From a bacterium (GTDB taxonomy: Bacteria > SAR324 > NAC60-12): a DNA stretch of 64,000 nt. The notes below the pieces were generated by a model. That model worked only from the letters and a program-made list of their open reading frames with translations. It had not been told where the DNA came from and did not search any database. The DNA is taken from positions 3,010,051 through 3,074,050 of the forward strand of contig OZ242383.1 of NCBI GenBank assembly GCA_965209155.1, given 5' to 3'. The number at the start of each line of letters is the position of its first letter. Positions within the stretch are counted from its first letter, which is position 1. This document shows positions 18,274 through 53,767 of this stretch, one piece after another. The translations under genes were made by a program, and so were the position numbers.

Positions 18274-18282
18274 GGGAAACCC

Positions 18283-18312
18283 CCTCCCTAACCCCTCCCG
18301 CCAGGGGAGGGG
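18283..18312 (-). terminator. intercistronic GC-rich stem-loop (cccctccc-gcca-gggagggg) between SBP and permease
   Basis: Perfect 8-9 bp GC stem; a copy sits in the fragment at 9840-9870. Confidence 0.4.
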
Positions 18313-18334: not shown

Positions 18335-20122
18335 CTAATGCCCCATTTCTTCCTTCAGCGCACTATCAATCCAGAGGCGGGCCATGAAGGTATTACGTGA
18401 GGCTCGTTGCATGCCTGCTTCACCGAAATAACCCTCGACCCACGGCTGGCTCACGTAAAACTTAGGGGATTTGGGTTTGATGATGGCGTAGTGCTCCCTT
18501 ACCGTTTTCTCATCGGCCTCACGATGTAAGCTCATCCACTCCTCCATGGTGGCAGCGACTTTCATGGCGGCAACTATGTCGTGCATTCGCTGGTCCTGAG
18601 TTTTGGGCCAATGACCATCTGCGCAATTTGATAAACAATATATATCCTTGTTGGGGGCGAACCAGCTATACGCCAAAAAATTGTGTAAATCCCACTTCAT
18701 CGTCGGCCCCCTTGCGGCAGCTCCCGCCTCGGCCTCAGTAACCACTTCAATCTCGCTATCAACGCCAATGGCATCGAAGTACGACATGAGTATTTCTCCA
18801 TAGGTCGTTTCAACCCTTTCCGAACTGCCTAGCTTGACCTTGAATCTATAGCCGTCGGCGCCTCGTGGATACCCAGCCGCATCAAGGAGTTCCTCGGCCC
18901 TTTCCGGATTATAGGTATATTCTTGCTTGACCTCGTCCGGCCATTCTTCAACTGGCCAGTTCCACCCTTTAGAAGCTTGACTTATATACCCATAAAGTGC
19001 TGTACTTCCATAACCCTTAAAGAAGGAATTGTTGATTGCCTCGTTGTCCACTGCCATCTGCAGTGCCTTGCGCACATTGACGTCCTGCATGAGCTCTGAA
19101 GACTGGTTAAAACCATAAAGGTTCTGGGCAATGGAATAAACGGGAAACACATCGATTTCAGGGTTGGTGCGCTGGAGAGCATCTACATAGTCGGGACTCA
19201 GAATATAAGCGTCGCCGGTTTCAGTCAGCATATCAATCTTACCCGTGCGCATTGCCGATAGACGTGTCGCTGACTCTGGCATAGCCAGGCTCACCAACTT
19301 GTCAATATAGGGCAGGCGGTTCTCCGGCCATTTTTCGTCGTATTTCCAGTAGTCAGGATTCTTCTCCCAGGTTGCCGAGCTGTCCTGGACGTGATCAGTC
19401 AGTCGATAGGGCCCGGTGCCGACCGCGTTCCTCCAATCCTGAGCGTCGCCGTATTTCTCGATTACCTCGGGAGCGTACATAAACGTGTAGGTGTGGAGCA
19501 TTTTCCCCAGCACATCGGCGTCAGGCCTCGCCAGCTTAACCACAACCGTCCATTTGTCGGTGGCCGTTACCGATTCGTACGTAAGACCATTCGTGATATC
19601 CTCAACTTCGGGGCTGATTCCAAGTTCGCTGAAATCACCCAGACCCAAATAGCGGTGATAGTTCCATTCGACGTCATAAGCATCGAACTGACGACCGTTC
19701 ACCGGCTCCTTATTGTCCCAGAAAACGCCCTGGCGGATGTGCCAGATGAACGTTGTGGGGTCGGGCTGCGACCAGCTTTCCGCCAGACACCCTGTGGTCA
19801 TCTCTGGGGTCACAACGACGTAAAAGTCAGCACTCTTATCCCTGGATAGTCCCCAGTCGGCGAAGGCCAGCTTCTCATTAACACCACTGATGAAGTGAGG
19901 CGCCCAGCCACCCGCGTACCACACGTCAGCACTCTTGGGATAGCGCTTCGTGCCAAAGGTGAGTGTCCCGCCATACTCATGGGCCGTCCACGTCTGGCCG
20001 GTGGCGGGATCGAACACCGTCTCTTTCTCAGCCGCCACGACTGAACTGACCCCGAATGCGACCAACATCAGGATCAGGGTTAACAACAATGATTGAATTT
20101 TTCTTGTATTACTTTTTACCAT
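18335..20122 (-). CDS. ABC transporter substrate-binding protein, family 5, cassette 1
   Basis: 595 aa, signal peptide, AGGAGG RBS. Confidence 0.85.
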   Translation of the reverse strand: MVKSNTRKIQSLLLTLILMLVAFGVSSVVAAEKETVFDPATGQTWTAHEYGGTLTFGTKRYPKSADVWYAGGWAPHFISGVNEKLAFADWGLSRDKSADFYVVVTPEMTTGCLAESWSQPDPTTFIWHIRQGVFWDNKEPVNGRQFDAYDVEWNYHRYLGLGDFSELGISPEVEDITNGLTYESVTATDKWTVVVKLARPDADVLGKMLHTYTFMYAPEVIEKYGDAQDWRNAVGTGPYRLTDHVQDSSATWEKNPDYWKYDEKWPENRLPYIDKLVSLAMPESATRLSAMRTGKIDMLTETGDAYILSPDYVDALQRTNPEIDVFPVYSIAQNLYGFNQSSELMQDVNVRKALQMAVDNEAINNSFFKGYGSTALYGYISQASKGWNWPVEEWPDEVKQEYTYNPERAEELLDAAGYPRGADGYRFKVKLGSSERVETTYGEILMSYFDAIGVDSEIEVVTEAEAGAAARGPTMKWDLHNFLAYSWFAPNKDIYCLSNCADGHWPKTQDQRMHDIVAAMKVAATMEEWMSLHREADEKTVREHYAIIKPKSPKFYVSQPWVEGYFGEAGMQRASRNTFMARLWIDSALKEEMGH

Positions 20123-20304
20123 GATTCCTCCTATACTTGATTTGGATTTAACTATTCAGGTCTCTGAAAAACCCGTTCAGTTAAATATCATTAAAAAGAT
20201 TCCCGGAGAGGACCGATCGTTTCACGTCCTTCCATGATATTGTTCAATCGATCAAGTGGGAACCCTCTTTTTCACTAAAACAACTTAGTGAAGACATAAT
20301 ATTA

Positions 20305-20335
20305 GCAATATATAGTTTTTTGCATAATGTCAACC
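20305..20335 (-). promoter_or_regulatory. sigma70-like promoter candidate (TTGACA-N15-TATATT), paralog of the one at 11905
   Basis: Sits in the conserved module upstream of SBP 18335..20122. Confidence 0.35.
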
Positions 20336-20529
20336 CCCAATTGAAAAAAAATGCAGGATTCGTAAAAAAAATTAAAAATCTATCAATCAGGGAGATCCGC
20401 TTCTTTATGATCATGAGCCAAAAAGCGAAGGTTCACTCCACAAATCCGGGGACAGTTACTAATTTTTATTTTTTTAGGCTCCCTGGTTTTTTGGGCCTCC
20501 ATTCTCGTTTGATCAGGGCTTCTGCTTTT

Positions 20530-20770
20530 CTTAAAAACGGTCATCTCCTAAAGGGCGACCCGTCCGAAAATGCTCTCGAAATTTTTCTAAATCAGGGTAC
20601 TCCACCTTAAATAGGGGAATGCCTGGAAGGAGCACTCTCAAACTAACCTGGCCATCTTACCTCCAATTCCTGAAGCGAAAATTCAATGAGCAATCATTGT
20701 TCACAACCTTAATCAAATTCAGAAATCTATTGCAAATAAATGGTAACTGTCCCCGGATTTTATCTTGTCG
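20530..20770. repeat. ~240-bp dispersed repeat (second copy 42900-43135) ending in a ggtaactgtcccc motif
   Basis: About 90% identical to 42900-43135. The ggtaactgtcccc motif recurs at 20445, 22590 and 43115. Confidence 0.6.
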
Positions 20771-21179: not shown

Positions 21180-21512
21180 ATGAAATGGAAAATTATTTAT
21201 TACAATGAAGAACTCCAGCACTGGACGGAAAATCTTCCTGTAGGAATTCGAGCTTACTATGCAAGAATTACCGAACGAATGGAGATTTATGGGCCAAATC
21301 TAGGGCTGCCACATACCCGGCCTATGGGAGAAGGATTGTTTGAGATTCGTGCTCAAGGAAAAGAAGGGATTGCACGAATATTTTATTGTACAGTGATCAA
21401 TCAAAAAATTGTGATGCTTCATGGATTTATCAAAAAAACTCGAAAAACTCTTAGAAACGAATTGAAAACTGCAAACCAAAGAATGAAAGAGGTGAAAAAT
21501 GAAATCTCATAA
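21180..21512 (+). CDS. RelE/ParE-superfamily toxin, HigB/Gp49-like
   Basis: 110 aa; pattern EI..YGPNLGLPHTRPMGEGLFEIR...GIARIFYC...IVMLHGFIKKTRKT; the toxin gene precedes the antitoxin. Confidence 0.65.
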   Translation: MKWKIIYYNEELQHWTENLPVGIRAYYARITERMEIYGPNLGLPHTRPMGEGLFEIRAQGKEGIARIFYCTVINQKIVMLHGFIKKTRKTLRNELKTANQRMKEVKNEIS

Positions 21513-21789
21513 ACAAATGGTTAAGGAGTGGATAAAAGATCCAGAGTTTAAAAAAGCTTATGATGATTTAGAAGAGGAATTTTCTCTTTTCGATGAATTG
21601 ATTCAGGCACGTCATACAGCAGGCTTAACTCAAGAGGAAGTCGCCGAAAAAATGGGAACCAAAGCTCCTGCTATTGCTCGTATTGAATCTTATGGTCGAA
21701 CAAATAACCGTTCGCCCAGTCTAAATACTCTTCAGAAATATGCAGATGCGGTAGGGTGTGAATTGCAGATCAAATTAGTTCCTCGTTAA
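21499..21789 (+). CDS. HTH XRE-family antitoxin (HigA-like)
   Basis: 96 aa; HTH (GLTQEEVAEKMGTKAPAIARIE); overlaps the toxin gene. Confidence 0.65.
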   Translation: MKSHKQMVKEWIKDPEFKKAYDDLEEEFSLFDELIQARHTAGLTQEEVAEKMGTKAPAIARIESYGRTNNRSPSLNTLQKYADAVGCELQIKLVPR

Positions 21790-22701
21790 GCTATTATTTT
21801 AAGTGGTTTTAATTGACGAGATGACTACAATTATCCCGCGAGATTCATCTTTTTGGTGAACTCCTCGAGGGATCATCGCTTGTGGAAGATCACGGTCAAG
21901 CCAGATCCGGTTTTTACGAAGGCCTACCAGATGGGGACTCAAGACTGTGAGACCGCTCATGCCATCGAGCTTGGATTACAGCAGGAATCGCTTCGACTTC
22001 TTGGAAATGGACAGGAGAGGTGATCATCTTTTAGAACTGATTTTTAATCACCTCTAAAATCAAGTAATAGGCATTGGTTCCCAAACGAATCCGCATGACG
22101 CTTTGATCATCAAAAGGGCAAGAGAGTATACAAGCATCTAAATAAAGTCGTTGATTCATCAAAACGCTCCCTGGATAGTCCTAAGTGAATGTTGTTGATG
22201 ATATGATCCGCTTTACAGAGAGTATCAATGAATGTCAATTTATTTGTGAAATTCGAGTGAACGTGTCAGGGTTTGGCGGGTAACGGGCCAAAATGGTCGA
22301 ACGCTTCATGCAAATCCTCGATCCGCTGCCATCGCTCCACAATTTCGTGGCCTTTCTGCAAAGCAATCGCTGAGCCTAAAAAAGTGGATCAAACTGACCA
22401 TCGCCGTCGCGGTATCGTAAAGATAAGTCCCCCGGCAATGACAGTACAGCACAAGATCGGCACACTTCAGGTTTTCCGTTTCAGTCAGGTCCGCGATCAG
22501 AATAACTTTCAAGCCCAACCTACGAAGCGTTTGTCCCTCTCGTGGTGGTTACGGGACGGTCCCCAGATTTTCGGATTTTCATTGCAAATGATTGGTAACT
22601 GTCCCCAGTTTTTAATAATTGGTAGCCGTATCTAAGTCTCTCATCGACATGCGAACAAGGAGAAAAGGGGACAAATTAATTTTTCTGTTTTTGGTTAGTC
22701 C

Positions 22702-23030: not shown

Positions 23031-23795
23031 TCAACCGCGCCAAGCTGCGATCTCATCGACCGCATTTCGCGCTTCACGCTCCAGAAACCATAAATCCATT
23101 CCGTACCCTATCCAACGAATGCCACTCTCCAACAATGATTTGACCGTGCTTGGAGTGGGCGGTATCGCCCACTGACAGAACGCTATCCCTTTCCTCTGGC
23201 ACATGGCACGGACGTGGTCTCTGGCTTCAGTTATCTGGGGATGGTCAAACTGGCCGGCTATACCCAGGAGGTGTGAGAGATCGGTATGGCCTACCCAGAC
23301 CACGTCTATCCCGGGAATGAGAATCTCCTCCAAGTGCTCGAGTGCCTCCGGAGTCTCAATAATCAGGCCGAGCAACGTGTTGGCGTTAGCGTGAGCGCAC
23401 GCTGCCGGTACATCAGGGGCCCCGTACATGCCAAACGCACGCTTTCCTTCGGGGTGGAATTTGGTAAACTCTATCAACAGCCGGGCCTCCGCTGCGCTCC
23501 GGATACTTGGTAGGATCAGACATTGACAGCCGTTGTCCAGCAATCTCGTGATGAAATGTTGCTCCAGGGCAGGAAGGCGTACCATCGGTGTGACACCAGC
23601 CAGGTGAGCATAATGGACGCTCTCCACTAGCTCTTTCATATCAAAATTAGTATGCTCAGCGTCCATATCCAAGTAGTCCACACCAGCCTTTGCATACGCC
23701 TCCACCACGTAGGGTCCGCGGCTCTTCATTAATGTTCCGATGATCACTTCACCTCTTTTCAACTTTGCTTTTAACTGATTTCCCCGCAAGGGCAT
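23031..23795 (-). CDS. HpcH/HpaI aldolase family protein
   Basis: 254 aa, TIM-barrel aldolase pattern. Confidence 0.75.
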   Translation of the reverse strand: MPLRGNQLKAKLKRGEVIIGTLMKSRGPYVVEAYAKAGVDYLDMDAEHTNFDMKELVESVHYAHLAGVTPMVRLPALEQHFITRLLDNGCQCLILPSIRSAAEARLLIEFTKFHPEGKRAFGMYGAPDVPAACAHANANTLLGLIIETPEALEHLEEILIPGIDVVWVGHTDLSHLLGIAGQFDHPQITEARDHVRAMCQRKGIAFCQWAIPPTPSTVKSLLESGIRWIGYGMDLWFLEREARNAVDEIAAWRG

Positions 23796-24040: not shown

Positions 24041-24997
24041 CTAAGCGAAGGGGTTGATCAGTCTGGAGAGGAATCCTCGTTTGCGTTTCCCTGCGGCGCC
24101 GTAACTGCCTTGGCCGCCCCTGAGCCTCGGGTCGAGCAGGTCTCGCACCGCGTCGCCGAACATGTTGAGGGAGTAGACTACAATCGTCAGGGCAAGCCCC
24201 GGCCAGAGCGCCAGCCATGGGGCAATTTCCATGAACTGACGTCCTTCCCGGCTGAGCAGACCACCCCAGCTAGGAATCTGGGCTGGCAGCCCGAACCCCA
24301 GGAAGCTCAGAGAAGCCTCAGACATAATCACCCCCCCGATGTTGATGCTAAATATGATGATGACGACAGCCGCAATATTGGGCAAGACATGTCGGATAAG
24401 TGTTCTCCATTTTGAGGAGCCAATCGCCTCTGCCGCCTCAAAATACACATTCTCTTTTACGCCAATAACGGCGCCTCTGACGACTCTTGAGCCGCTGATG
24501 CCTCCTGCTATACCCAGGACCACTATTATCTGTGGGATACCCCGCCCCACTATGGACATTATGGTTAACAATATAAGCAGTGCCGGGAAAGCCATCCAGG
24601 CATCGACAAAGCGCTGCACCACCAGGTCCACTTTCCCCCCAAGGAATCCAGACGTGCCGCCGACCAGGAGCGCGACGAGCACATTGAGCGTGGTTGCGGC
24701 CAGACCCACCACTAAGGAAATGCGAGCCCCGACGATCAGGCGGCTCAGGAGGTCTCGCCCAAACTGGTCGGTCCCCAGGAGATGCCGGGCGGATGAGCCC
24801 TGTAGCCGGTCTACCAAGTTTGGTTTATCATAGGGATAAGGGGTCAACACATCGGCAAAGATGGCCACCACAATCAAGATCAAGATGATGAGCCCGCCGA
24901 AGGTCCCCAGGGGCTTCTCCTTGACCAGCCGGATGAAGAAATCCACAAACCGGCTCCGTCGCTTGGGCCCACGGATGGGGGAGGGTCTCTCATTCAT
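24041..24997 (-). CDS. ABC transporter permease (DppC-like), cassette 2
   Basis: 318 aa; about 80% identical to 31738..32694. Confidence 0.85.
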   Translation of the reverse strand: MNERPSPIRGPKRRSRFVDFFIRLVKEKPLGTFGGLIILILIVVAIFADVLTPYPYDKPNLVDRLQGSSARHLLGTDQFGRDLLSRLIVGARISLVVGLAATTLNVLVALLVGGTSGFLGGKVDLVVQRFVDAWMAFPALLILLTIMSIVGRGIPQIIVVLGIAGGISGSRVVRGAVIGVKENVYFEAAEAIGSSKWRTLIRHVLPNIAAVVIIIFSINIGGVIMSEASLSFLGFGLPAQIPSWGGLLSREGRQFMEIAPWLALWPGLALTIVVYSLNMFGDAVRDLLDPRLRGGQGSYGAAGKRKRGFLSRLINPFA

Positions 24998-26008
24998 ACC
25001 GCACCCTGGGGTCTAAATAAAGATAGATCATGTCGATCATTAGATTTATTCCTAAAACCGCGGTGCCGAAAAACAGGTTGACTCCGGAGACCACCGGGTA
25101 GTCTCTCTCATTGAGTGTATCCACTATGAGACGACCTAGCCCCGGCAGGTTAAAGATGTTCTCCATGATCACGGCGCCGCCGACCAGGATCGGTAACTGC
25201 AGGCCAATCAGGGTCACCACTGGGATGAGGGCATTTTTGATGGTATGTCTGATCACCACGACCCGCTCCTTGAGCCCCTTGGACCAGGCCGTCCGAATAT
25301 AGTCCTGCCGGAGCACCTCCAGCATCATGGTGCGGGTCATGCGCATGGTGCTGGCAGACAAAGCCGTCCCCAGAATCACGCTGGGAATGATGAGCCCCCG
25401 GAGATTCCCCAGAGGGTCTTCCGTGAAAGGAATCCACTCCATCGGCGGCGACCAGCCCCACCAGATTGCCGGGAAGATCATGACCATCAATCCCAACCAG
25501 AAGTTAGGCGTTGCCATGCCGATGATGGCGATGGAGCGCCCCACGTAGTCGGCGGCCGTATCCTGGCGAATCGCCGAGTAGATGCCAATGGGCAACGCGA
25601 TCACCAGACCGATGACGATGGCCAGAATGCCAAGTTCCAGGGTGACCGGCAAACTGGCCAATATCGTCTCCTCTACCGAAAGAGGGCTCATCAGTGATTG
25701 GCCAAGGGTGCCTGGAGGATACCGTTGAAGCGGGACTCACCGGTAAACCAGTCAGGGGTTCGCAACACTCCCATCCAGCGTCCATACTGCACCCAGACAG
25801 GCACGTCTAATCCCATCATACGCAGAAGAGCTTCACGGTCTATCGCCGGACCCGCCCACCCGGGGCCACCAGCAATGGCTTCCATCCGAGCTTCTATTAG
25901 GTCTATTACATTGCCCGGGAGGAAGCGGACCAAGAGAAAGACCAGGATGCTCAGTATAAAGAGGGTGGGGATTATGAGCAACAGCCTCCTGATTATATAG
26001 GCTCTCAT
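24990..26008 (-). pseudogene. DppB-like permease, cassette 2, interrupted by a 1-nt frameshift
   Basis: N-terminal ORF 25691..26008 and C-terminal ORF 24990..25691. The frame is restored by adding one G in the run ctccag|gcaccc at ~25718. Confidence 0.65.
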
Positions 26009-26111
26009 GGGATACTCCTCTTTCCCCTCTTTGGCAAAGGGGGGGGCCGTCCGCGGAAGCGGGGATTTCAAAGGCTGTAAAATCCCCCTTTTTCAAAGGG
26101 GGACTTGTAGA

Positions 26112-27917
26112 CTAATGCCCCATTTCTTTCTTTAGCTCACTATCAATCCAGAGGCGGGAGAAGACAACATGGTTTTGGCTTGCTCCAAAGCCGCCTTCAG
26201 CGTTATAACCTATCACCCACGGCTGGTGCACGGTAAACACTGGGGCTAAAGGCCCCCAGAGGAACCAGTGCTGCTCTATGATGCGCATGTCCATCTCTTT
26301 AGTCAGCCTCGTCGCCTCCTCCATGGTGGTCGCCTCTACCATGGCTTCATACAGGGCGTCATATTGCGCGTCGGAGACTCCAGAGTAACTCCGTGCAGTG
26401 CCCCCGTAAAACTGAGTCATTGCCCACAATGGATAGAATGGATCAGCCTTGATGCCCGCATTCCACCAAGTCAAATCATAGTCTCCCGCGTTTCGTCTAG
26501 CCCCAAATTCTGCACCGGAACGTGTCTCAATAACCACATCAACGCCAATCTCACGCCAGTATGCTGCCTGTAATTCTACCAATTCCATCGACGGATCAGC
26601 CAGAAACGTGGCCTTGAATCTAAAGCCGTCGGCGCCACGAGGATATCCCGCCTCATCAAGCAACGCTTCTGCCCGTGCCGGGTCATAGGTATAATATCCC
26701 TTAAGCTCTTTGGGCCACTCTTCAAATGGGACGTGATAGTCCTTGAATTCCCTGCCTACCAGCCCCCGAGGTATCGTATCCGCATAACCCTTATAGAAGG
26801 TAGCGTTCATTGTCTCAAGGTCCAGTGCCATCTGCATTGCATGGCGCACCCTGATGTCGTCCCCCCAGAGCGGCCTGCGCTGGTTCAAACTGATAGAAGT
26901 ATTCGACCGTTCTGACCACCTGTGCACCACGAGTTCGGGGTTGGTCCGCATGAGGCTCTCTGCCTGGTCTAGAGTGTTTAATTGAGTGGCGCCCGGCCAA
27001 CCTATGAAATCGATCTTACCACTGCGCAGTCCCGCCAGACGTGTTGGCACTTCCAGGATAACAAGGCCCTTTACCTCGTCAACATAGGGCAAGCGGTTCT
27101 CCGGGTATTTTTCGTCGAAGCCCCAGTAGTTGGGATTCTTGGTCCAGGTCACAGAGCTGCGCGGGACCAAGTCAGTCAGCTCAAAGGGCCCGGTGCCGAC
27201 CACACTCTGCCAATCCCAATCGTCCCCGTATTCCTCGAGTAGCTCGGGGGGCTGTATAACCATACTGTTCCAGTCCAAGATAAGGCCCAGGCCACGGAGT
27301 CTTGGCTCCTTCAGCTTCATAACAACCGTATATTTGTCGGTGGCTGTTACCGATTCGAAAGGCAAATCCAGGAGGGAACCTCCCCCTGGAGAAGGTTCGG
27401 CTTCACTGAACTCGGTCCCTGTCAATTTATTTCCCAACATGCGGTGAAAGGTATGTTCTACATCCTTGGCAGTTAGCTCGCGCCCAGATACCGGCGGCTT
27501 ATCATGCCAGTGAACGCCCTGGCGGATGTGGAAGATATAAGTTGTGTTGTCAGGCTGTTCCCAGCTTTCCGCCAGCGCCCCCCTGAGGGCGTATACAGGC
27601 GTAAGGTAGCCGCCGACAAAGGGATATGTGTCCCTATCTATTGCCCAGTTCGTCATGGCCAGTTTCTCTAGAACGCCACTGGTGATGAATAACGATCCCG
27701 GACCGCCACTATAGGCATCCACTCGACGGTCATTGCCATACAGGACCTGGGTTATTGTCCCGCCATACTCTGGTGCAGTGTACACCTTGCCATTGCTGGG
27801 GTCCGTCACATACTTCTTCTCAGCAGCAACGGCCGAACTGACCCAAAATGCAGCCACCATCAGGGTGAGGGTGAGCAGGATTGCACTGAAGGTTGATTTG
27901 CTTTTTTGATTTTCCAT
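26112..27917 (-). CDS. ABC transporter substrate-binding protein, family 5, cassette 2
   Basis: Starts at MENQKSKS (27917) before the signal peptide. The upstream in-frame extension to 28016 is an untranslated leader. Confidence 0.8.
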   Translation of the reverse strand: MENQKSKSTFSAILLTLTLMVAAFWVSSAVAAEKKYVTDPSNGKVYTAPEYGGTITQVLYGNDRRVDAYSGGPGSLFITSGVLEKLAMTNWAIDRDTYPFVGGYLTPVYALRGALAESWEQPDNTTYIFHIRQGVHWHDKPPVSGRELTAKDVEHTFHRMLGNKLTGTEFSEAEPSPGGGSLLDLPFESVTATDKYTVVMKLKEPRLRGLGLILDWNSMVIQPPELLEEYGDDWDWQSVVGTGPFELTDLVPRSSVTWTKNPNYWGFDEKYPENRLPYVDEVKGLVILEVPTRLAGLRSGKIDFIGWPGATQLNTLDQAESLMRTNPELVVHRWSERSNTSISLNQRRPLWGDDIRVRHAMQMALDLETMNATFYKGYADTIPRGLVGREFKDYHVPFEEWPKELKGYYTYDPARAEALLDEAGYPRGADGFRFKATFLADPSMELVELQAAYWREIGVDVVIETRSGAEFGARRNAGDYDLTWWNAGIKADPFYPLWAMTQFYGGTARSYSGVSDAQYDALYEAMVEATTMEEATRLTKEMDMRIIEQHWFLWGPLAPVFTVHQPWVIGYNAEGGFGASQNHVVFSRLWIDSELKKEMGH

Positions 27918-28016
27918 CTTTTTCCTTTCTGCTTTTTGATTAAAAACAAGATTTAGGATTGATTTAAAACCTGCTTTCGTTCCCGAAAGCACGTTCTCGA
28001 CGATTTCTCTACACAT

Positions 28017-29130
28017 TGGGTCTCCTTCATTTTCAAGTGATCAAAAAAACGATTCATGGCTCCAGGATTGGGCAATGAACCATGTACTTTAAATTCTCTT
28101 GAGGAATTTCCATTGGCTGAAATGAACTGAGGGGTAATTCAAGGATCTCTCCCTGAAGTCGAGATGAGATAAGGGGGGACAATCCAATGAACTGGGGACT
28201 TGGGATTTAGAACGTGGGTGCCGGGTGCCGGGTGCCGGGTGCCGGGTGCCGGGTGCCGGGTGCCGGGTGCCGGGTGCCGGGTGCCGGGTGATTGAATGAT
28301 ACTCTCATATTAACCTTTTGTCAAGAAATTTTTATACTTGAAACGGGTTAATTTCAGACTTTCATGTCATCCTGATTGATAGCTGACAGCGAAAAGCCAT
28401 TTCGCGACAACGTCTCTTTAAGGAAAATATTTTATATCCAGAAAAAAATCAACATTTTTTTTAAGACAGATCCGATTTAGTCATTTAAGGCAAATTTTTC
28501 TCATATCCAGAAATAGTATAATCGCTCTGCAAATGTATCAAGATTTTTTTAAATATGGCGACTCATTCATTTATGAGTGTCTTCTGATGATCAACGAAAA
28601 TACTTTTTCATATACGGAAGTCAACATTTTTGGCACTTTTCAATTCCCCTTTGACCGTTTCTAAAAATCCTCTGCTGAGGATATGATGTTTTACATGACT
28701 TTCGGCTCAATCAATAGGAGCGAAATTGAAATGAAACCTTCAGCCCAAGGCGTTTTGGTTGAGAATTATCAAAAAAGAAATAGAAAAACAAGCCGAAATT
28801 CTTAAAAATCTTCAGCCCAAGGCGATTTCTTGAAAACTATCACAAAAGAACGATGATGGCAAAATCCTGGTAGGTTTCATTATCCCCTTCAGTATCTTCT
28901 CTATATAACAATATTCAGAGGAGGTCAATCGATTTTTTTTGCTCATCTTAACTCCTCAGGGGCGAGTGCTGGTGTCATCCTGGATTTGATCCTGGCTCCT
29001 ATCTGTGTCAGTCCTTGAAAATACTGTGCAATCCTGCCCTTCCAGGAGCGAAAAGCATGGGATTCAAAGCGCATCATTTCAATGACTGATGAGCACTCAA
29101 AATAAGCAGCTTTCGCAAAAAGTTGCTTGA
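28017..29130. repeat. ~1.1-kb conserved noncoding region, copy A
   Basis: Near-identical to 36190-37200 (copy B) and 41940-42415 (partial copy C). AT-rich core, no ORF conserved between copies. Confidence 0.75.
28216..28290. repeat. heptanucleotide tandem repeat (GGGTGCC) x ~10.7
   Basis: Direct count; about 4.7 degenerate copies at 36407-36439 and about 1.7 at 42168-42186. Confidence 0.9.
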
Positions 29131-29136: not shown

Positions 29137-29382
29137 TTAGGAGCGATTGAGTTGAGATTGAAGCTGTTGAAGCAGGCTTTGTAACTCTTCTTTCCTTTTT
29201 CGAATCAACTCTTCTTCAGGAGTCCTCTCTTGCTTGAAAAGGATTTGAGTCATGTGGATTTGACTAATCAGTTTTCCTTTTTCCAGACCTTCTTCTCGAC
29301 CTTCTTCCAAACCTTGTGATTTTCCGATTTGGATCAGTTCTTTTCCGGCGACGGTTTCGTCCAATGGTGTCAGTTTGAGCAT
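29137..29382 (-). pseudogene. C-terminal fragment of an Rpn/YhgA-like (Transposase_31) protein
   Basis: EGREEGLEKGKL repeat tail typical of that family; no N-terminal nuclease part. Confidence 0.4.
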
Positions 29383-30316: not shown

Positions 30317-30811
30317 ATGGCCAAACCACGCGTGTATGTCGAGACCACGGTTCCCAGCTTTTACCACGAAGAGCGCACCGCCCCCGCCATCGTGGCCCGC
30401 CGGGAGTGGACCCAGCGGTGGTGGGACAGCGCGCCCGAGCGCTACGAGCTGGTCACCAGCCCCGCGGTGCTCGACGAGTTGACCGGCGGCATACCGGAAC
30501 GCAGTGCGAAACGACTGGCTCTGATTCGTGGTCTACCACTCCTGCCAGTCGAATCGGCCATCGCCGAGATCGTCCAGGGATATATCCGGCACAAGGTGAA
30601 GCCGGCTGATCCTGGTGGTGACGCACTGCATTTGGCGCTTGCGTCTTATCACAAATGCGACTTTCTGGTCACCTGGAATTGCCAGCACCTTGCAAATGCG
30701 AACAAGTTCGGACACATCCGCCGTGTGAATGCCATGCTCGGTCTTTTCGTGCCAGCGTTGGTGACACCCTTGGAGCTACTTGGAGATAGCGATGAAACAG
30801 AAATCGAATGA
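30317..30811 (+). CDS. PIN-like domain protein (putative VapC-type nuclease)
   Basis: 164 aa; PIN-like distribution of acidic/polar residues (VYVETTV...SPAVLDEL...DALHLALA...DFLVTWNCQHL). Sits in a local high-GC patch. Confidence 0.4.
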   Translation: MAKPRVYVETTVPSFYHEERTAPAIVARREWTQRWWDSAPERYELVTSPAVLDELTGGIPERSAKRLALIRGLPLLPVESAIAEIVQGYIRHKVKPADPGGDALHLALASYHKCDFLVTWNCQHLANANKFGHIRRVNAMLGLFVPALVTPLELLGDSDETEIE

Positions 30812-31065: not shown

Positions 31066-31323
31066 ATGGAATCAGATTTTGTAAAAGTTCATAAACATTC
31101 GTCATATCACAGAGACGAATTAACAGAAGGCGAGTACTGTGGTTGCTTTTACTGCCTATCGATTTTTGAGCCGAGTATAATTGTGGAATGGATCGATGAG
31201 ATTGAAGGGGTAAGGACAACAGCAATGGGCCCCAATTGTGGAATAGATTCTGTCATCGGTTCGAATTCAGGTTACCCCATCCCAAAAGAGTTTCTGTCAA
31301 AAATGCGAAGATATTGGTTTTAG
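31066..31323 (+). CDS. hypothetical cytosolic protein
   Basis: About 85 aa from Met MESDFVKV...; the ORF-track 5' extension from 30931 runs through a GC-rich linker. Confidence 0.3.
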   Translation: MESDFVKVHKHSSYHRDELTEGEYCGCFYCLSIFEPSIIVEWIDEIEGVRTTAMGPNCGIDSVIGSNSGYPIPKEFLSKMRRYWF

Positions 31324-31333
31324 GAATGGAAAT

Positions 31334-31468
31334 TAGTATGCTCAGCGTCCATATCCAAGTAGTCCACACCGGCCTGCGCATAAGCCTCCACCACGTGGGG
31401 TCCGCGGCTCTTCATTAATGTTTCGATGATCACTTCACCTCTTTTCAACTTTGCTTTTAACTGATTCT
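31334..31468 (-). pseudogene. 5' fragment (~45 codons) of an HpcH/HpaI aldolase gene
   Basis: 31334-31740 is near-identical to 23640-24040, which holds the start of aldolase 23031..23795 plus the intergenic region. Confidence 0.7.
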
Positions 31469-31737
31469 CCCGCAAGGGCATGGTTTCCTCCTTTTTACTT
31501 CGGATAATGAATAATTCCCCGACTCTAACTTCCTTATCTCATCTCTCTCCCTTTCCTGGTTAATGAGGCTGAAAGTTCGGGCTGACCCAGGGTGATGGCA
31601 ATCCCTTCATCCCCGTCCGACGAGCCGTTCTCAGGGGGGAAAGGAGTCGTAAGACTCCCGACCTACCCGACGGAAATATGAACTTAAATTCCCAAAGTCA
31701 CAGGCTTGACCCCGATTTGACCCCGATTCCCCGATTT

Positions 31738-34093: not shown

Positions 34094-35986
34094 CTAATGA
34101 CCCATTGCTTCCTTCAGCTCACTATCAATCCAGAGGCGGGAGAAGACCACTTGCATTTGAATCGCTCCAAAGCCGCCTTCGCCGTTATAACCCATCACCC
34201 ACGGCCAGTGCACGTTAAAAGATGGGGCCAAAGGCCCCCAGATGAACCAGAACTGCTCTATAAAGCGCATGTCCATCTCTTTAATAAGCGGCATCTGATC
34301 CTCTATGGTAGCAGCCGCGCGGGCGGCTTCATACAGGGCGTCAAATTCCGCGTCACGGACTACGGCGTTCCTCTCTGCGCGCGACCAAAGAAAACCCATT
34401 TGCGACAATGGATCAGCCTTTACCCCCGAAGTTGCACCACGTATTTCAAAATCTCCAGTCATCTCTCTAGCATTAAATTCTACAGAGGTAGGTGTCTCAA
34501 CATCCACATCAATTCCAATGTCACGCCAGTATGCGGCGACGAATTCTGTCCAGCTCAAATCAAACCGCTGGAAGTGCATGACCTCGGTCTTGAATCTAAC
34601 GCCGTCGGCGCCTCGAGGATATCCAGCCTCATCAAGCAGCTTCTCGGCCCCTGCCGGGTCATACCTGTGGTATTGCTTGAGCTCTTCGGGCCACTCTTCA
34701 AATGGGATGTGATACCCCTTGAATTCCCTGCCTACTCGCCCCCGAGGTATCGTATCTGCATAACCCTTGAAGTAGGTATCGTTCATTGTCTCGAGGTCCA
34801 GTGCCATCTGCATTGCGTGGCGCACCCGGATGTCGTCAAAGGGTGGCTTGCTCACGTTCAAACTAAAACTAGCATTCGACCGTTCTGACCACGGGTGCAC
34901 CACGAGTTCGGGGTTGGTTCGCATGAGGCTCTCTACCTGACCTATAGAGTTTAAATTAGCGAGGCCCTGCCAACCTATGTAATCAACCTTACCCGAGCGT
35001 AGTGCCGCCAAATAGGTCGGCACCTCCATGATCACCAGACCCCTCACGGTGTCGATATAGGGCAAGCGGTTCTCCGGGTATTTTTCGTCGTAGCCCCAGT
35101 AGGTTGGATTCTTGGTCCAGGTCACAGAGGTGGCGGGGACCAAGTCAGTTATCGTGTAGGGCCCGGTGCCGACCACGTTCCTCCAATCCTGCATGTCCCC
35201 GTATTGCTCGATTACCTCGGGGGGCTGTATAACCATACCGTGCTTGTCCAAGATAAGGTTCAGGGCATCGAGTCTTGGCTCCTTCAGCTTCATAACAACC
35301 GTCCACTTGTCGGTGGCCTCTACCGATTCGAAAGGCAAATCTGTGAGGGCACCTCCCATTGGGGAAGGTTCGGTGAAGCCGCTGCCCAAGCCCAAATAGC
35401 GGTGAAAGGAATGTTCTACATCCTTGGCAGTTAGCTCTCGCCCATTCACCGGCGGCTTATCATGCCAGTGAACGCCCTGGCGGATGTGGAAGATATACGT
35501 TGTGGCGTCGGGCTGTTCCCAGCTTTCAGCCAGCGCCCCCCTTAGGGCGTATAAAGGCGCCATGTACCCGCCGACAAAGGGATATGTGTCCCTGTCTATT
35601 GCCCAGTCCACGACGGCCAGTTTCTCTACAACGCCACTGGTGATGAATAACGCTAAATGGCTATACCAAGCATCCAGCTTCGATGCCACTAATGAGGTGT
35701 TTTTCAGGACGTGTGTCAATGTCCCGCCATACTCAGGTGCACTCACTACCATACCTGTGCTGGGGTCTGTCACATACTTCTTCTCGGCAGCAACGGCTGC
35801 CGAACCGGTCCAAAGGACGATCAGACCCAGGATGAGGGCCAGCAGGGTTGCCCTGAAGTTTGATTTGCTTTTTTGATGATCAATCTTTTTCCTTTCGATT
35901 GAATGTTCAAAATTAAGGATTGCTTTAAAACCTGCTTTCGTTCCCGAAAGCACGTTCTCAACGATGCTTCTGATTATTATTTTCAT
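34094..35986 (-). CDS. ABC transporter substrate-binding protein, family 5, cassette 3
   Basis: About 70% identical to 26112..27917. The position homologous to the paralogs' ATG start is ATT, so the start is placed at the upstream ATG (35986) with low certainty. The ORF-track extension to 36187 runs through tandem leader repeats. Confidence 0.7.
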   Translation of the reverse strand: MKIIIRSIVENVLSGTKAGFKAILNFEHSIERKKIDHQKSKSNFRATLLALILGLIVLWTGSAAVAAEKKYVTDPSTGMVVSAPEYGGTLTHVLKNTSLVASKLDAWYSHLALFITSGVVEKLAVVDWAIDRDTYPFVGGYMAPLYALRGALAESWEQPDATTYIFHIRQGVHWHDKPPVNGRELTAKDVEHSFHRYLGLGSGFTEPSPMGGALTDLPFESVEATDKWTVVMKLKEPRLDALNLILDKHGMVIQPPEVIEQYGDMQDWRNVVGTGPYTITDLVPATSVTWTKNPTYWGYDEKYPENRLPYIDTVRGLVIMEVPTYLAALRSGKVDYIGWQGLANLNSIGQVESLMRTNPELVVHPWSERSNASFSLNVSKPPFDDIRVRHAMQMALDLETMNDTYFKGYADTIPRGRVGREFKGYHIPFEEWPEELKQYHRYDPAGAEKLLDEAGYPRGADGVRFKTEVMHFQRFDLSWTEFVAAYWRDIGIDVDVETPTSVEFNAREMTGDFEIRGATSGVKADPLSQMGFLWSRAERNAVVRDAEFDALYEAARAAATIEDQMPLIKEMDMRFIEQFWFIWGPLAPSFNVHWPWVMGYNGEGGFGAIQMQVVFSRLWIDSELKEAMGH

Positions 35987-36190
35987 TTTGACCTTTTCTG
36001 CTTTTTGATTAAAAACAAGATTATTAAAACCTGCTTTCGTTCCCGAAAGCACGTTCTCGAGGATTCTTCTACTTTTTTGAAGGTTCATCGTGTTCCTTTC
36101 TGCTTTTTGATTAAAAACAAGATTGCGGGTTGCTTTAAAACTTGTTTTCGTTCCCGAAAGCAAGTTCTCGACGTTTTCTCTACACATTGG
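35895..36190. repeat. three tandem copies (~99-111 bp) of the SBP leader unit with hairpin ctttcg-ttcc-cgaaag
   Basis: Unit ctgctttttgattaaaaacaagatt...cctgctttcgttcccgaaagcacgttctcgacg. Single copies at 27940-28010 and 41875-41925. Confidence 0.8.
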
Positions 36191-37200
36191 GTCTCCTTCA
36201 TTTTCAAGTGATCAAAAAACCAATTCATTGCCTCCAGGATGGGGCAATGAACTATAAACCGACGCACTCAGGCGCCGATGATTTTCCAAATTCCCCATTG
36301 CCGTTCCGTTCCCGGAACGGAGAACGAGGGATCTCAAGGATCTCTCCCTGATGTCGAGATAAGATAAGGGGGGACAATCCAATGAACTGGGGACTTGGGA
36401 TTTAGAACGTGGGTGCTGTGTGCCGGGTGCCGGGTGCCGGGTGATTGAATGATACTCTCATATTAACCTTTTGTCAAGAAATTTTTATACTTGAAACGGG
36501 TTAATTTCAGACTTTCATGTCATCCTGATTGATAGCTGACAGCGAAAAGCCATTTCGCGACAGCGACTCTTTAAGGAAAATATTTTATATCCAAAAAAAA
36601 TCAACATTTTTTTTAAGACAGATCCGATTTAGTCATTTAAGGCAAATTTTTCTCATATCCAGAAATAGTATAATCGCTCTGCAAATGTATCAAGATTTTT
36701 TTAAATATGGCGACTCATTCATTCATGAGTGTCTTCTGATGATCAAAGAAAATACGTTTTCATATACGGAAGTCAACATTTTTGGCACTTTTCCATTCCC
36801 CGTTGATCGTTTCTAAAAATCCTCTGCTGAGGATATGAAGTTTTAGATGACTTTCGGCTCAATCAATAGGAGCGAAATTGAAATGAAACCTTCAGCCCAA
36901 GGCGATTTCTTGAAAACTATCACAAAAGAACGATGATGGCAAAATCCTGGTAGGTTTCATTATCCCCTTCAGTATCCTCTCTCAATATAACAATATTCAG
37001 AGGAGGTCAATCGATTTTTTTTTGCTCACCTTGATTCCTCAGTGGCGAGTGCTGGTGTCATCCTGGAGTTGATCCTCGCTCTTCTCTGTGTCAGTCCTTA
37101 AAAATACTGGACAATCCTGCCCTTCCAGGAATGAAAAGCATGGGATTCAGAGCGAATCATTTCAAGGACTGATGCTCAGTCGGCACGCGTTTCGATGGTC
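36190..37200. repeat. ~1.0-kb conserved noncoding region, copy B
   Basis: See 28017-29130. Confidence 0.75.
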
Positions 37201-37284: not shown

Positions 37285-37512
37285 ATGGGTTTGTCGGTTC
37301 CTTTTGACCGGAGACTGCCCTTATCATTCAAGGGATTGCGGGAAAATCTACCAAGATGTTGCCTTCAGAGAGCCAGAGGCGATAACGTTGATGACATCAT
37401 TGATGATTTCCCGAATTGGAAGGCAGAGGATATTGAGGCTTGTCTCGCCGAGGCAGCCTCCCTGGCAGAAGAACCAATCATTCCGATTGATTTAGAAGCG
37501 CAGGAAGGGTGA
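37285..37512 (+). pseudogene. DUF433-family (antitoxin-like) gene, N-terminal half frameshifted
   Basis: C-terminal ...DDIIDDFPNWKAEDIEACLAEAASLA matches the DUF433 C-terminus. The N-terminal half is readable only in another frame. Confidence 0.4.
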
Positions 37513-37709
37513 AAATCAGGGTCGATGAGAACATCCCCAAGATGACTGTCAGGGCACTATCAGCACGAGGAGATGATCTCCTCGAGATCCGAGGAACCGA
37601 ATGCGAAGGCATTCCAGCTGATCAAGTCTGGCAAATCTGCCAAGATCAAAAAAGACTTTTCAATTCGACAGAGAGGGGCTTTTCCAAAGCCCGAGAATCG
37701 AATCACTAG
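37509..37709 (+). CDS. DUF5615-like (PIN-like, Mut7-C-type) small protein, probably degenerate
   Basis: Starts MKIRVDENIP like the DUF5615 partners of DUF433. The C-terminus is divergent. Confidence 0.35.
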   Translation: MKIRVDENIPKMTVRALSARGDDLLEIRGTECEGIPADQVWQICQDQKRLFNSTERGFSKARESNH

Positions 37710-38091
37710 GGAATGAGGATTGTTTGCCTCAAACAACCCAGTGGCCAAGGCATCCATCAATGCGATTTACAATGAGCGCAAATTGGATCTTGGTTTAGAA
37801 TCGTTACACAATCGAATTGTTGGTGGGCTTGGGATGTGATAAAATAAGAGTAAATATTTTTCTTCACTCACAATACAGAGGGAAAAATGGATCAAGTATC
37901 AGAAGATTGGGCCATTCGGTTCCGGTTTCATTACTGAACTGAATGAAAGCGATGAATTGATTGGCAGCGAGATCCCGGATGCCAGTAAATTTATTAAATT
38001 TATCAGAGAGCCGCCTTCGATTATGTTCGTCAGCTCATAGGACCCCATGCCGACCAGGTTCCTCCAATCCTTTTTCATTGCAAAAGCAAAT

Positions 38092-39050
38092 GTCTGAAAA
38101 GAAAAACTTTCACATGTCTCCGGATGCTTTCCGGCACCATGGTAAAGCTGTCGTCGACTGGATTGCCGATTATTATGAAGCCATTGATTCTTTCCCCGTC
38201 TTTTCTCGAGCCCAACCCGGTGATATCCGTTCCGCTCTGCCGGCAGAACCTCCCTGGCATGGAGAAAAATTTGAGACGATTTTGCAGGATATGGATCGTC
38301 TCCTCCCCGGAGTGACACATTGGCAGTCCCCCAATTTTTTTGCTTTTTTTCCTGCCAATGCTTCCGGACCCTCGATCCTGGGGGATTTGCTTTCATCCGG
38401 ATTGGTAGTTCAGGGGATGCTCTAGTCAACCAGTCCTGCCTGCACGGAGTTGGAAACCCATGTGTTGGATTGGCTGGTGGACATGTTGGGCTTACCTGCC
38501 AAATTCAAATCGGACTCAACAGGTGGAGGAGTGATTCAGGATACGGCTTCCAGCGCCTCCCTCTGTGCGCTACTGGCGGCACGTGAGCGTGTAACGGGTT
38601 TTGCCAGCAACGAAACAGGATGCGATGGTCGCTTGGTGGCCTATGCCTCCACACAAGCCCACTCCTCCGTGGAGAAAGCCGTCAAAATCGCAGGTATTGG
38701 AAGGCAAAACCTACGCCTGATTGCAGTGGATGACAATTTTGCCATGCGTCCTGATGAACTCGCCCGGCAAATCGATGAGGATCGCCAGGCAGGTTTAATT
38801 CCATGTTTTGTTTGCGCTACCATGGGGACGACTTCCTCCAATGCCATGGATCCCTTTGGGGCGGCGTTTCCGCTCCTTGAAGCTCTGGTTTGTTATTCGC
38901 CACTACGGAATCGAAGGATTGCGTTAGCACATCAAACACCACATTGAAATGGCACAAGATTTTGCGCAATGGATCGAAGCGTCCGAACATTTCGAGTTGG
39001 CGGCGCCCGCCCCCTTGAATCTGGTTTGCTTCCGGCATGCGCAAGTGGCA
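38092..39050 (+). pseudogene. group II PLP-dependent (aromatic-L-amino-acid-type) decarboxylase: two in-frame TAG stops, ~130-codon internal deletion, 3' truncation
   Basis: Motifs HWQSPNFFAFFPA, SPACTELETHVLDWL and [18 protein letters not shown] are present. Stops at 38423 and ~38922. The PLP-lysine region is absent. Cassette 4 begins at 39082. Confidence 0.7.
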
Positions 39051-41835: not shown

Positions 41836-41939
41836 CTTTTCCCTTTCAATTGCATGTTCAGAATTAAGGTTTGCTTGAAAACCTGCTTTCGTTCCCGAAA
41901 ACCCGTTCTCGACGATGCTTCTGATTATTATTTTCATTT

Positions 41940-42415
41940 TTACCTCTAATATAAAAAGTTAAAAAAGCAATATTCACCATGAATATTACCCTATCAAAAA
42001 AACCGATTCACTGGCGCCAGGATTGGGCCATGAACCCTGAGCTTTCAATTCTCTCGAGGCATTTCCATTGGCTGAAATGAACTGAGGTGCGACTCAAGGA
42101 TCTCTCCCTGAAGTCGAGATGAGATAAGGGGGACAGCCCAATGAACTGGGAACTTGGGATTTAGAACGTGGGAACTGGGCGCCGGGTGATTGAATGATAC
42201 TCTCATATTAACCTTATTGTCAAGAATTTTTATATTTGACGGGTTAATTTCAGACTTTCATGTCATCCTGATTGATAGCTGTCAGCGAAAAACCATTTCG
42301 CGACAGCGACTCTTTAAGGAAAATAGTTTATATCCAGAAAAAAATCAACATATTTTTTAAGACAGATCCGATTTAGTCATTTAAGGCAAATTTTTCTCAT
42401 ATCCAGAAATAGTAT
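41940..42415. repeat. conserved noncoding region, partial copy C
   Basis: Matches copies A and B up to ...ccagaaatagtataa, then diverges. Confidence 0.7.
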
Positions 42416-42544
42416 AAGTTGTGCTTGACTTCCCAGTACCCACTTACCATAAACGTTCGGCTTACAAAATAGAGCACTAGTATAAAAAATGACCTTCATG
42501 AGAAAATTATTTTACCTTTGACAATAAGTCTGATTCTGGAATAG

Positions 42545-42826
42545 ATGTTAATTCAGAATCTCGATAGTGAACCATTTATAGTGGGAGCAATAATGATTGA
42601 TAGGATAAACATTGATGCAAGTATTCATTTTGGCAAGCCTTGCATTGCAGGGACAAGAATTCCAGTACAAAATGTTCTGGAATTACTGAAAGAAGAAGTA
42701 TCTTTCCATGAAATTATAAAAGATTATTACCCCGATCTTAAGCCTGAAGATATCCATGCCTGTTTGGAGTATGCAATTGCGCTTGTGGCCTCTGAAGACA
42801 TTGACTTGACGCCGGAACCAGCATGA
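42545..42826 (+). CDS. DUF433-family protein (putative antitoxin)
   Basis: 93 aa; GKPCIAGTRIPVQNVLELL...YPDLKPEDIHACLEYA. Confidence 0.65.
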   Translation: MLIQNLDSEPFIVGAIMIDRINIDASIHFGKPCIAGTRIPVQNVLELLKEEVSFHEIIKDYYPDLKPEDIHACLEYAIALVASEDIDLTPEPA

Positions 42827-42900: not shown

Positions 42901-43135
42901 GCTCCTTGATCCATAACGGTCATCTCCTAAAGGGCGACTCGTCCGAAAATGCTCTCGAAATTTTTTAAATCAGGGGACTCCTCCTTAAATAGGGGAATGC
43001 CTGGAAGGAGTACTCTCACCAACCTGGCCATCTGACTTCCAATTCCTGAAGCGAAAATTCAATGATCAATCATTGTTCACAACCTTAATCAAATTCAGAA
43101 ATCTATTGCAAATGATTGGTAACTGTCCCCGAATT
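42900..43135. repeat. ~240-bp dispersed repeat (copy of 20530-20770)
   Basis: Direct alignment. Confidence 0.6.
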
Positions 43136-43164
43136 TTCGGAATCCGTAATCCCGGCAAAACAAT

Positions 43165-53766: not shown

Positions 53767-53767
53767 C

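Follow-up and report, generated by a model that had tools for sequence, protein, structure and literature searches.

Three divergent substrate-binding protein (SBP) genes in a 64,000-nucleotide stretch of a SAR324 genome (lineage NAC60-12; assembly GCA_965209155.1, contig OZ242383.1, positions 3,010,051–3,074,050; hereafter the window) are each preceded by a copy of the same noncoding sequence, which reaches about 1 kb. We consider it likely that this sequence serves as the 5′ control module for a multigene family, specific to this lineage, of ATP-binding cassette (ABC) transporters with SBP_bac_5 binding proteins, and that its copies are alike mainly because of recombination between paralogs. 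The genes form three tandem cassettes on the minus strand of the window, each consisting of an SBP_bac_5 gene followed by genes of Opp-type permeases, and the parts of the module described below lie on that strand as well unless stated otherwise.

The three binding-protein genes, SBP A (26112–27917; assigned by its Pfam SBP_bac_5 match), SBP B (34094–35884) and SBP C (40054–41835), the latter two assigned by alignment to SBP A, are clearly diverged. Amino-acid identity is 68.6% between A and B, 51.4% between A and C and 50.5% between B and C, nucleotide identity is 78.8, 65.3 and 63.8%, and four-fold degenerate sites are identical at 77, 70 and 64%, respectively. The permeases of the cassettes share 75–80% identity. 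Repeat searches and alignments located the module copies in direct orientation upstream of these genes at 28017–29098 (copy A), 36188–37181 (copy B) and 41938–42417 (copy C), as an earlier note on this DNA had described; the limits it gave were roughly right, although the homology between A and B stops short of its end points at 29130 and 37200. The shared part of copy C stops directly past the motif AGTATAA, so that this copy is without the distal part of the module. Since copy C is about 160 nt longer in another strain (L001), the copy in the window is truncated, and it ends beside a DUF433 gene. The region is AT-rich, as stated before, with a GC content of 0.39–0.40 compared with 0.51–0.57 in its flanks, and a 27-mer from a conserved block occurs three times against an expectation of 0.00, so that the repeat cannot be due to chance.

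The repetition is thus real, but calling the copies almost identical was too strong. Identity in aligned columns is 92.9% between A and B, with eight indel events comprising 142 gap columns, 89.7% between A and C and 83.6% between B and C. It is unevenly distributed in the A–B pair, amounting to 99.1% in the 232 nt around the predicted promoter, 94.5% in the distal part and 81% in the leader, where one stretch of about 100 columns reaches just ~64% and occurs in two alternative sequence forms. Within this genome the upstream DNA is indeed more alike than the genes that it precedes (84–93% in the module vs. 64–77% at four-fold sites). Also upheld was the observation that the copies have no open reading frame (ORF) in common: copy B contains one of 95 aa, which is split into ORFs of 34 and 43 aa in copy A, and a 44-aa ORF at 28943–29077 is broken in copy B and in L001. 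The small ORFs of the region have no Pfam match. A protein-coding gene or pseudogene was rejected because the ORFs differ between copies and lack such a match.

Orthologous loci and probable exchange between paralogs

We compared the window with contigs that carry SBP A homologs (loci designated L), among which L001 and L002 belong to the same species as the window and L003, L004 and L020 to relatives, and with one GTDB genome, the metagenome-assembled genome (MAG) CBDBHR01. Across strains the pattern seen within the window is inverted. The SBP A coding sequence is 98.9% identical to its ortholog in L001 and SBP B is 99.6% identical to its ortholog in L002, while the first 200 nt of the respective modules are 86–89% and 90–93% identical; SBP C and its ortholog in L001 are 98.5% identical. 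The contrast is also seen in L020, where the SBP A ortholog is 98.4% identical over the coding sequence and 81% in the signal-peptide region, and where identity to module A declines from 82% in the promoter block to 58% in the leader and 45% in the unit region directly upstream of the gene. The module at this locus is of another class: its −10 hexamer and terminator variant differ, its heptamer is CCCAGTT, and its in-frame unit is of an unrelated type. The earlier argument that conservation exceeding that of the coding sequence implies selection therefore fails across strains, where orthologous coding sequences are 98–99% identical and module segments are 45–87% identical and of another class.

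Among paralogs, the module surpasses synonymous sites in similarity; between orthologs, it falls short of the coding sequence. This combination bears the signature of concerted evolution, and the pattern at the orthologous loci attributes the near-identity of the copies in the window mainly to that process. Mosaic segments accompany the contrast between paralogs and orthologs, as expected of a shared 5′ homology box that evolves in concert. Six sites in the distal stretch join copy A of the window and copy B of L002 against copy A of L001 and copy B of the window, and within the window the leader of copy A matches that of copy C, whereas the SBP A coding sequence is closest to SBP B. In the MAG, the promoter block of one copy (L007) is 98% identical to that of copy A although its SBP is just 48% identical. 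At another MAG locus (L016), presumed from its sequence to be the ortholog of window C, SBP and permease are 80% identical to those of the window at the nucleotide level, and promoter, heptamer and leader belong to another class. To judge by these identity patterns, the data indicate that a functional control cassette has repeatedly undergone gene conversion or been swapped as a module. The signal-peptide region of SBP A is part of the exchanged 5′ block, and exchange breakpoints appear to lie as far inside the gene as the signal peptide and the first ~25 codons for the mature protein.

The module is not confined to the window. The combination of a 27-mer and a promoter that marks its core occurs three times in the window, twice in L001, once in L002, twice each in L003 and L004, once in L020 and 15 times on eight contigs of MAG CBDBHR01, where the search pattern was the 27-mer with three degenerate positions. 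The order of the module parts is the same in L001, L002, L003, L004 and L020. An SBP_bac_5 paralog with 42–100% identity to SBP A begins 420–750 nt downstream in about 20 of the 25 copies, and where no SBP follows, the module copy is interrupted by transposases or runs into the end of the locus. Among 17 complete copies, mature SBPs share a mean amino-acid identity of 54% and the 82-nt promoter block a mean nucleotide identity of 89%, with little correlation between the two (r = 0.21). Overall, the module stands before no fewer than 25 SBP paralogs, of which one MAG accounts for 15. Purifying selection is still needed to explain the core, comprising the 27-mer, the promoter, a conserved leader block (P1) and the hairpins, which is recognizable in every copy from three or more genomes, even though the best-matching cassette genes of these genomes share just 75–86% identity. 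Of the two alternatives proposed previously, a noncoding function and gene conversion, both contribute; the former is supported by a promoter and a long hairpin-containing 5′ leader and by the core blocks found before the SBP paralogs of several genomes.

Several points weigh against this reading. Promoter, start site and attenuator are predictions from consensus sequences or folding energies. Covariation is limited to one or two pairs per hairpin, with one compensatory pair in the terminator-like hairpin; in the hairpin of the leader unit 88.7% of the cells are paired with two double-change pairs, a score that 18 of 500 shuffled alignments also reach, and the alifold consensus of the leader has compensatory changes in two of 52 pairs with a covariation term of +0.17, the alignments being shallow and too similar in both cases. 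Gene conversion was deduced from identity patterns, and the only calibration of the divergence between genomes came from cassette genes, themselves members of paralogous families. Invariance of the 27-mer in the MAG is a matter of construction, because the copies there were found through it. Finally, in L002 (2304–2890) the C-type SBP has no module upstream and is preceded by a fragment of a Molydop_binding gene instead, so that the module is dispensable and can be lost at an orthologous locus.

These results also illustrate that gene conversion can make noncoding DNA surpass adjacent genes in conservation within one genome, and that such cases need to be checked against orthologous loci before selection is invoked.

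Parts of the module

Transcription of SBP A is predicted to start from a sigma-70-type promoter, TTGACA-17-TATCAT (28296–28324), that matches the consensus at 11 of 12 positions and recurs at 36449–36477 and 42194–42223. It is kept in all copies in the form TTGAYA-17/18-TATCAT or TAAGCT. Upstream, at about −83 to −57, lies an invariant 27-mer, GGATGACATGAAAGTCTGAAATTAACC (28346–28372, 36499–36525 and 42242–42268), which is exact in nine of the ten copies that were found through SBP homology and without a match in JGI metagenomes; from its sequence and position it is a candidate activator or UP site. By contrast, the TATAAT highlighted by the earlier note (28517–28522) is on the plus strand, points away from the SBP genes and lacks a −35 hexamer.

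A heptanucleotide variable-number tandem repeat, (CACCCGG)n on the sense strand (28216–28290), starts ~5 nt past the −10 hexamer, that is, at about position +1 of the predicted promoter. Tandem Repeats Finder counted 10.7 units in copy A, where degenerate heptamers follow the array, and 4.7 units in copy B (36411–36443); copy C has about two. Across the module copies the unit is CACCCGG, CCCAGTT, CAATTCT/CAATTCC or CCAAAAT, and the number of units ranges from 2 to ~27, while the position of the array is constant. Orthologous arrays with nearly identical flanks differ in length, with ~16.7 units at the A locus of L001 and two at the B locus of L002, as is typical of simple-sequence contingency loci. 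All three repeat tracts of the module vary between strains at the same locus in this way: 10.7 vs. ~16.7 and 4.7 vs. 2 heptamers, one vs. three leader units, and two vs. one copies of a 71-nt repeat described below. On the template (plus) strand, the array of copy A (28216–28288) fits a G-quadruplex (G4) motif of four runs of at least three G with spacings of 1–7 nt. This motif is found in 14 of 25 module copies overall and is absent from copies B and C of the window. A reading of the heptamers as HutP-like NAG-N4 sites was dropped on inspection by eye, as the CACCCGG, CAATTCT and CCAAAAT arrays contain no AG.

The leader downstream of the array contains a conserved block, CCCCUUAUCUCAUCUCGAC-UUCA-GGGAGAGAUCC (28143–28176), whose hairpin has an energy no better than that of shuffled sequences (z +0.24). 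Elsewhere the loop of this block at times holds a GC-rich insert of about 30–100 nt. A hairpin-forming insert of this kind (...CGGTACGCCC...GGGCGTACCG...), located inside the CUCGAC/GGGAGAG block, was seen in L003 (~9690–9780), L017, L018, L019 and L006; within these AT-rich leaders it looks like a small insertion element. The middle segment of the leader has alternative, non-homologous forms, with form 1 in copies A and C and form 2 in copy B. It is followed by a terminator-like hairpin with a run of six to seven U at 28043–28085 in A (−14.3 kcal/mol), 36214–36255 in B (−18.3 kcal/mol) and 41997–42039 in C (−16.2 kcal/mol); copy C has a second such hairpin at 41961–41989. This stable stem-loop and U-run between promoter and start codon has the form of an intrinsic terminator and is a candidate attenuator.

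Between the hairpin and SBP A lies a leader unit of ~100 nt that is in frame with the gene (27917–28028). It comprises, in this order, a Shine-Dalgarno (SD) sequence (GGAG), an ATG, a 13-bp hairpin with a GGAA loop (27971–27992; −18.1 kcal/mol, z −6.0), a second SD sequence and the ATG of SBP A at 27917. Such units open with GAAGGAGACCCAAUG and number one in copies A and C and three in copy B, where they are arranged in tandem and in frame (111 + 99 + about 102 nt; 35885–36199); the last unit provides the SD sequence of the SBP signal peptide. The frame is open into the SBP gene in 16 of 18 copies and the unit lengths of 99, 102 and 111 nt are multiples of three. Many SBP A homologs bear N-terminal extensions built of these units. 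Substitutions in them show no third-position bias (2.1/3.3/2.1), and non-synonymous differences exceed synonymous ones by 2059 to 431. A conserved N-terminal domain was rejected because the frame is kept and the peptide is not. In contrast to the ATG of A and C, the canonical start of SBP B (35884) is an ATT, both in the window and in L002, and the nearest in-frame ATG is that of an upstream leader unit 34 codons earlier, which makes the ATGs of the upstream units plausible start sites. A second, unrelated family of in-frame N-terminal units (...KKFLARFVGLTVAGVVIAAKIRFAQRRVNHSKNPQIKEVNM...) precedes other SBP paralogs (L020, 5991–6384; proteins P0008, P0129 and P0133; L004, about 20290–20460) and also the SBP A ortholog of another strain.

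Upstream of the 27-mer lies an AT-rich region (28376–28662) that contains two additional, weaker promoter-like sites (28624–28597 and 28541–28513) and an 80-nt block (28442–28521) that is 99–100% identical in A, B and C. This block is missing from L003 and most MAG copies and is thus modular rather than universal. The 27-mer at 28465–28491 within it, 100% identical in the three copies, had no exact match in the genome or metagenome contigs searched, and the block that holds it is, by sequence, specific to this genome. Farther out is the distal stretch of about 600 nt, whose gene-proximal end is marked by a small hairpin, ATCCUC-AGCA-GAGGAU followed by U5 (28663–28682; −7.2 kcal/mol, z −3.4), with a counterpart at 36815–36834 in copy B; the hairpin resembles a terminator, possibly that of the upstream gene. 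Within this stretch, a direct repeat of ~71 nt (28734–28850) is present in two copies in A and one in B; L001 has one at its A locus, L002 two at its B locus, and MAG loci up to three or four. The distal flank of copy A is occupied by an 81-aa ORF (29137–29382), recognized by a nucleotide match as what remains of the C-terminal part of a DUF2887 (Rpn-like) gene. The match, at 90%, is to the 3′ end of a DUF2887 gene that is intact in L003 and stands upstream of one of the module copies there. By tblastn, the gene or its remnant was found solely beside copies in the window, L001, L003 and L004. Because it accompanies a minority of the copies only, an obligatory partnership with the module was rejected.

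Alternative explanations and a proposed mechanism

The module could be, or ride on, a mobile element such as a miniature inverted-repeat transposable element, a remnant of an insertion sequence or a "mobile promoter" that was inserted independently before SBP genes. The dispersal of 15 copies over eight contigs in a single MAG, the sharp ends of the homology and the DUF2887/Rpn-like remnant beside some copies would fit such an element, and promoter reuse is documented in prokaryotes (PMC3575422). However, no terminal inverted repeats occur at the ends of the homology, only short internal ones at chance level (target-site duplications were not examined), and a search for inverted pairs of at least 40 nt found none. 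Orientation and distance to the homologous SBP genes are constant, the homology runs on into the signal peptide, and every intact copy precedes an SBP_bac_5 paralog rather than the non-homologous genes expected downstream of a mobile promoter. The copies without an SBP are interrupted by transposases or truncated, and the DUF2887 remnant is found at a minority of copies. We regard an origin by independent insertion as unlikely.

Purifying selection alone on one structured cis-regulatory RNA, for example a riboswitch, that would keep the entire kilobase or the leader alike with no recombination involved, is in our view very unlikely. The several stable hairpins, among them the terminator-like one in the leader, the few compensatory changes and the conservation of core blocks across genomes are what such an RNA would leave. 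However, Rfam returned no match at the gathering threshold anywhere in the window and, at E ≤ 10, chance-level matches only (14–25 bits vs. gathering scores of 35–100), and folding z-scores of the whole leader are just −1.9 and −1.3. Two or three non-homologous forms of the central leader occur, a GC-rich insert of ~100 nt is tolerated, and it is on account of these alternative forms that a riboswitch was rejected. Nor is one long structured RNA, as considered in the earlier note, supported. In addition, the distal block and a further block termed "prox" are found in subsets of the copies only, and orthologous loci with 98% identical coding sequences bear different module classes.

A different division of the locus would place an independent, multi-copy gene of a small RNA between promoter and terminator (from about 28290 to 28043), with the SBP transcribed separately; in a variant, a divergent or antisense small RNA would run on the plus strand from the TATAAT at 28517 to the hairpin at 28667–28682. 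The strong promoter followed 170–400 nt later by a hairpin and U6–7 is in line with the former, and the perfect plus-strand TATAAT with a palindromic hairpin ~150 nt downstream with the latter. An independent small RNA requires a second promoter for the SBP, however, and no promoter-like site was found between terminator and SBP. The length of its transcript would vary by hundreds of nucleotides with the tandem repeat, and its body has non-homologous forms. The plus-strand TATAAT has neither a −35 hexamer nor a TG extension and was not flagged in the promoter scan, and copy C lacks everything beyond it. We give this possibility little credence. A recent segmental triplication, with SBPs that diverged rapidly under positive selection and noncoding identity that reflects the true young age, agrees with the tandem cassettes, the co-duplicated aldolase fragment described below and the frequent diversification of ligand-binding SBPs, but it is excluded for practical purposes and hardly credible, because the four-fold sites have diverged to the same degree as the remaining coding sequence, which is unexpected under positive selection on the protein, the permeases, too, are just 75–80% identical, and each paralog has its own 98–99% identical ortholog in other strains and is thus older than strain divergence.

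Under the reading that we favor, a control module homogenized by recombination, the distal AT-rich stretch would be the leftover 3′ flank of an upstream DUF2887-like gene, and homologous recombination (gene conversion) may lately have spread one module variant over the neighboring cassettes A, B and C. Driving and co-regulating the transporters would be the reason why the 27-mer, the promoter and the hairpins, as core blocks, have been kept across genomes. Transcription most likely starts a few nucleotides inside the heptamer array from the conserved sigma-70-type promoter, as modeled from its consensus match, and the 27-mer occupies the interval in which class I activators or UP elements may act; a regulator common to all copies would make the family a regulon. 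The leader hairpin and U-run could end most transcripts unless some factor relieves termination, which would amount to attenuation; candidate pairings alternative to the hairpin were noted by eye. By analogy with the 7-bp repeats in the hmw promoters of Haemophilus influenzae, the numbers of heptamers and of leader units may tune output, and any additional N-terminal residues encoded by leader units would presumably be removed with the signal peptide.

It is also conceivable, though doubtful, that the module is a programmed variation system for the nutrient-uptake repertoire, in which the logic of contingency loci and of pilE is applied to SBPs. The C3N4 heptamer array at +1, G4-capable on the template strand, would then set the level of transcription and act at the same time as a transcription-dependent hot spot of recombination that leads to gene conversion. 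Conversion would shuffle promoter, leader and signal-peptide modules among at least 15 SBP cassettes, and the in-frame SD-ATG units would form an array of translation starts with variable copy number.

Several known systems share features with the module. In the upstream-homology-box (UHB) family of Borrelia burgdorferi (ospE/ospF/erp), divergent paralogs have a highly conserved 5′ flank and promoter and recombination has been reported (Marconi 1996 and Sung 2000, cited in PMC10016077). The SBP family resembles it in sharing a highly conserved 5′ flank and promoter among divergent paralogs, with apparent recombination among its members. However, the genes concerned here are chromosomal and encode ABC-transporter SBPs of an uncultured, probably marine bacterium, in contrast to the prophage-borne surface lipoproteins of a pathogen, and the module is up to 1 kb long with three tandem-repeat tracts and attenuator-like hairpins. 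The promoters of hmw1A and hmw2A in H. influenzae contain 7-bp tandem repeats, more of which correlate with less mRNA (PMC2424069). As in hmw, a heptanucleotide array whose copy number varies by strain and paralog lies between promoter and coding region. It differs in its units (CACCCGG, CCCAGTT, CAATTCT and CCAAAAT), in its presence at no fewer than 25 paralogous loci and in an organism that is not a host-adapted pathogen. Unrelated genes of Beggiatoaceae, cyanobacteria and Bacteroidetes have intergenic arrays of the heptamer TAACTGA, of unknown function, a few nucleotides before their start codons (PMC4679880), and heptamers occur near promoters in Nostoc (bioRxiv 10.1101/2022.06.06.494920). 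Both are likewise arrays of variable copy number in 5′ regions, between promoter and start codon; compared with the TAACTGA arrays, those of the module have other units and are located at about +1 of one conserved promoter in one gene family.

The likeness to attenuators is more general. Rho-independent attenuators and leader-peptide regions have a hairpin and U-run in a long 5′ leader together with short upstream ORFs that possess their own SD sequence. Both features are present in the module, except that its upstream ORFs do not stop before the structural gene but continue into it in frame. In Neisseria gonorrhoeae, a G4 tract next to the pilE promoter reportedly makes gene conversion at that locus G4-dependent. 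The module similarly has a G4-capable tract beside the promoter at a locus where frequent gene conversion is inferred, but the tract is a motif match that just 14 of 25 copies, and within the window copy A only, display. The motif in the array allows for a link between transcription, G4 formation and recombination, which is speculative. None of the systems compared joins a conserved promoter–leader cassette, three variable tracts and module swapping in an environmental SBP family.

Most known examples of conserved 5′ homology boxes and of contingency switches based on repeats come from families of pathogen surface antigens, and here the same architecture stands before the many members of a family of binding proteins of ABC transporters, in an environmental lineage that is uncultured. 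If the cassette is common to the family and its tracts tune expression, uptake repertoires could vary stochastically or be rewired rapidly by module swapping, with implications for how oligotrophs hedge between nutrients. The leader is also an unannotated candidate cis-regulatory element with 25 or more instances, and it could serve as the seed of a covariance model.

The cassettes and their surroundings

Some of the cassettes look partly pseudogenized. The first permease of cassette A is encoded in two frames (24990–25691 and 25691–26071), and the place of the expected second permease of cassette C is taken by a 176-aa ORF (37899–38429) without a Pfam match. Downstream of cassette A lies a gene of an HpcH/HpaI aldolase (23031–23795), the N-terminus of which is duplicated in a 53-aa ORF at 31320–31481. 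The duplicated fragment makes the aldolase part of the ancestral duplication unit, of which the copy belonging to cassette B has decayed. Five cassettes in all, each with an SBP and two permeases and at times with catabolic enzymes (FAA hydrolase twice, aldolase), were recognized. No ABC ATPase was found among the ORFs beside them (9893–41937) that were run against Pfam and NCBIfam, some ORFs of the span being unscanned; cassettes truly without an ATPase would have to share one from elsewhere. An identical 20-mer, CCCCCTCCCTAACCCCTCCC (plus strand; 9838–9857 and 18280–18299), separates each of two further SBP genes (9893–11836 and 18335–20122) from the permease and lies directly 3′ of the SBP. 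Its G-rich strand is the sense strand of these genes, and it matches the G-quadruplex motif in the mRNA sense.

Small genes and gene fragments of toxin–antitoxin type, including a PIN domain, DUF433 and, as judged by eye, a helix-turn-helix gene and a DUF433 fragment, lie between the cassettes (21180–21789, 30317–30811, 37285–37600 and 42545–42826), at the places where the homology of the module copies stops. A stretch resembling a defense island (47084–62120) encodes a DISARM DrmD-like SNF2 helicase (47084–50602), MAD3/PtuA-like ATPases (55907–57685 and 60873–62120) and an anti-phage-associated DUF1156 protein (57682–60876). The host of the module is probably a marine bacterium, free-living or symbiotic, and the closest named relative of a thiamine-diphosphate-dependent enzyme encoded near the module is a protein of a SAR324 cluster bacterium (73% identity). 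Another dispersed noncoding repeat of ~226 nt, unrelated to the SBP module, is present at 42915–43137 and 20536–20761 (94% identical), with its core again at 22581–22606; it ends in ...GGTAACTGTCCCCGAATTTTC and was found also in L001, L002, L010 and L017 at 75–96% identity.

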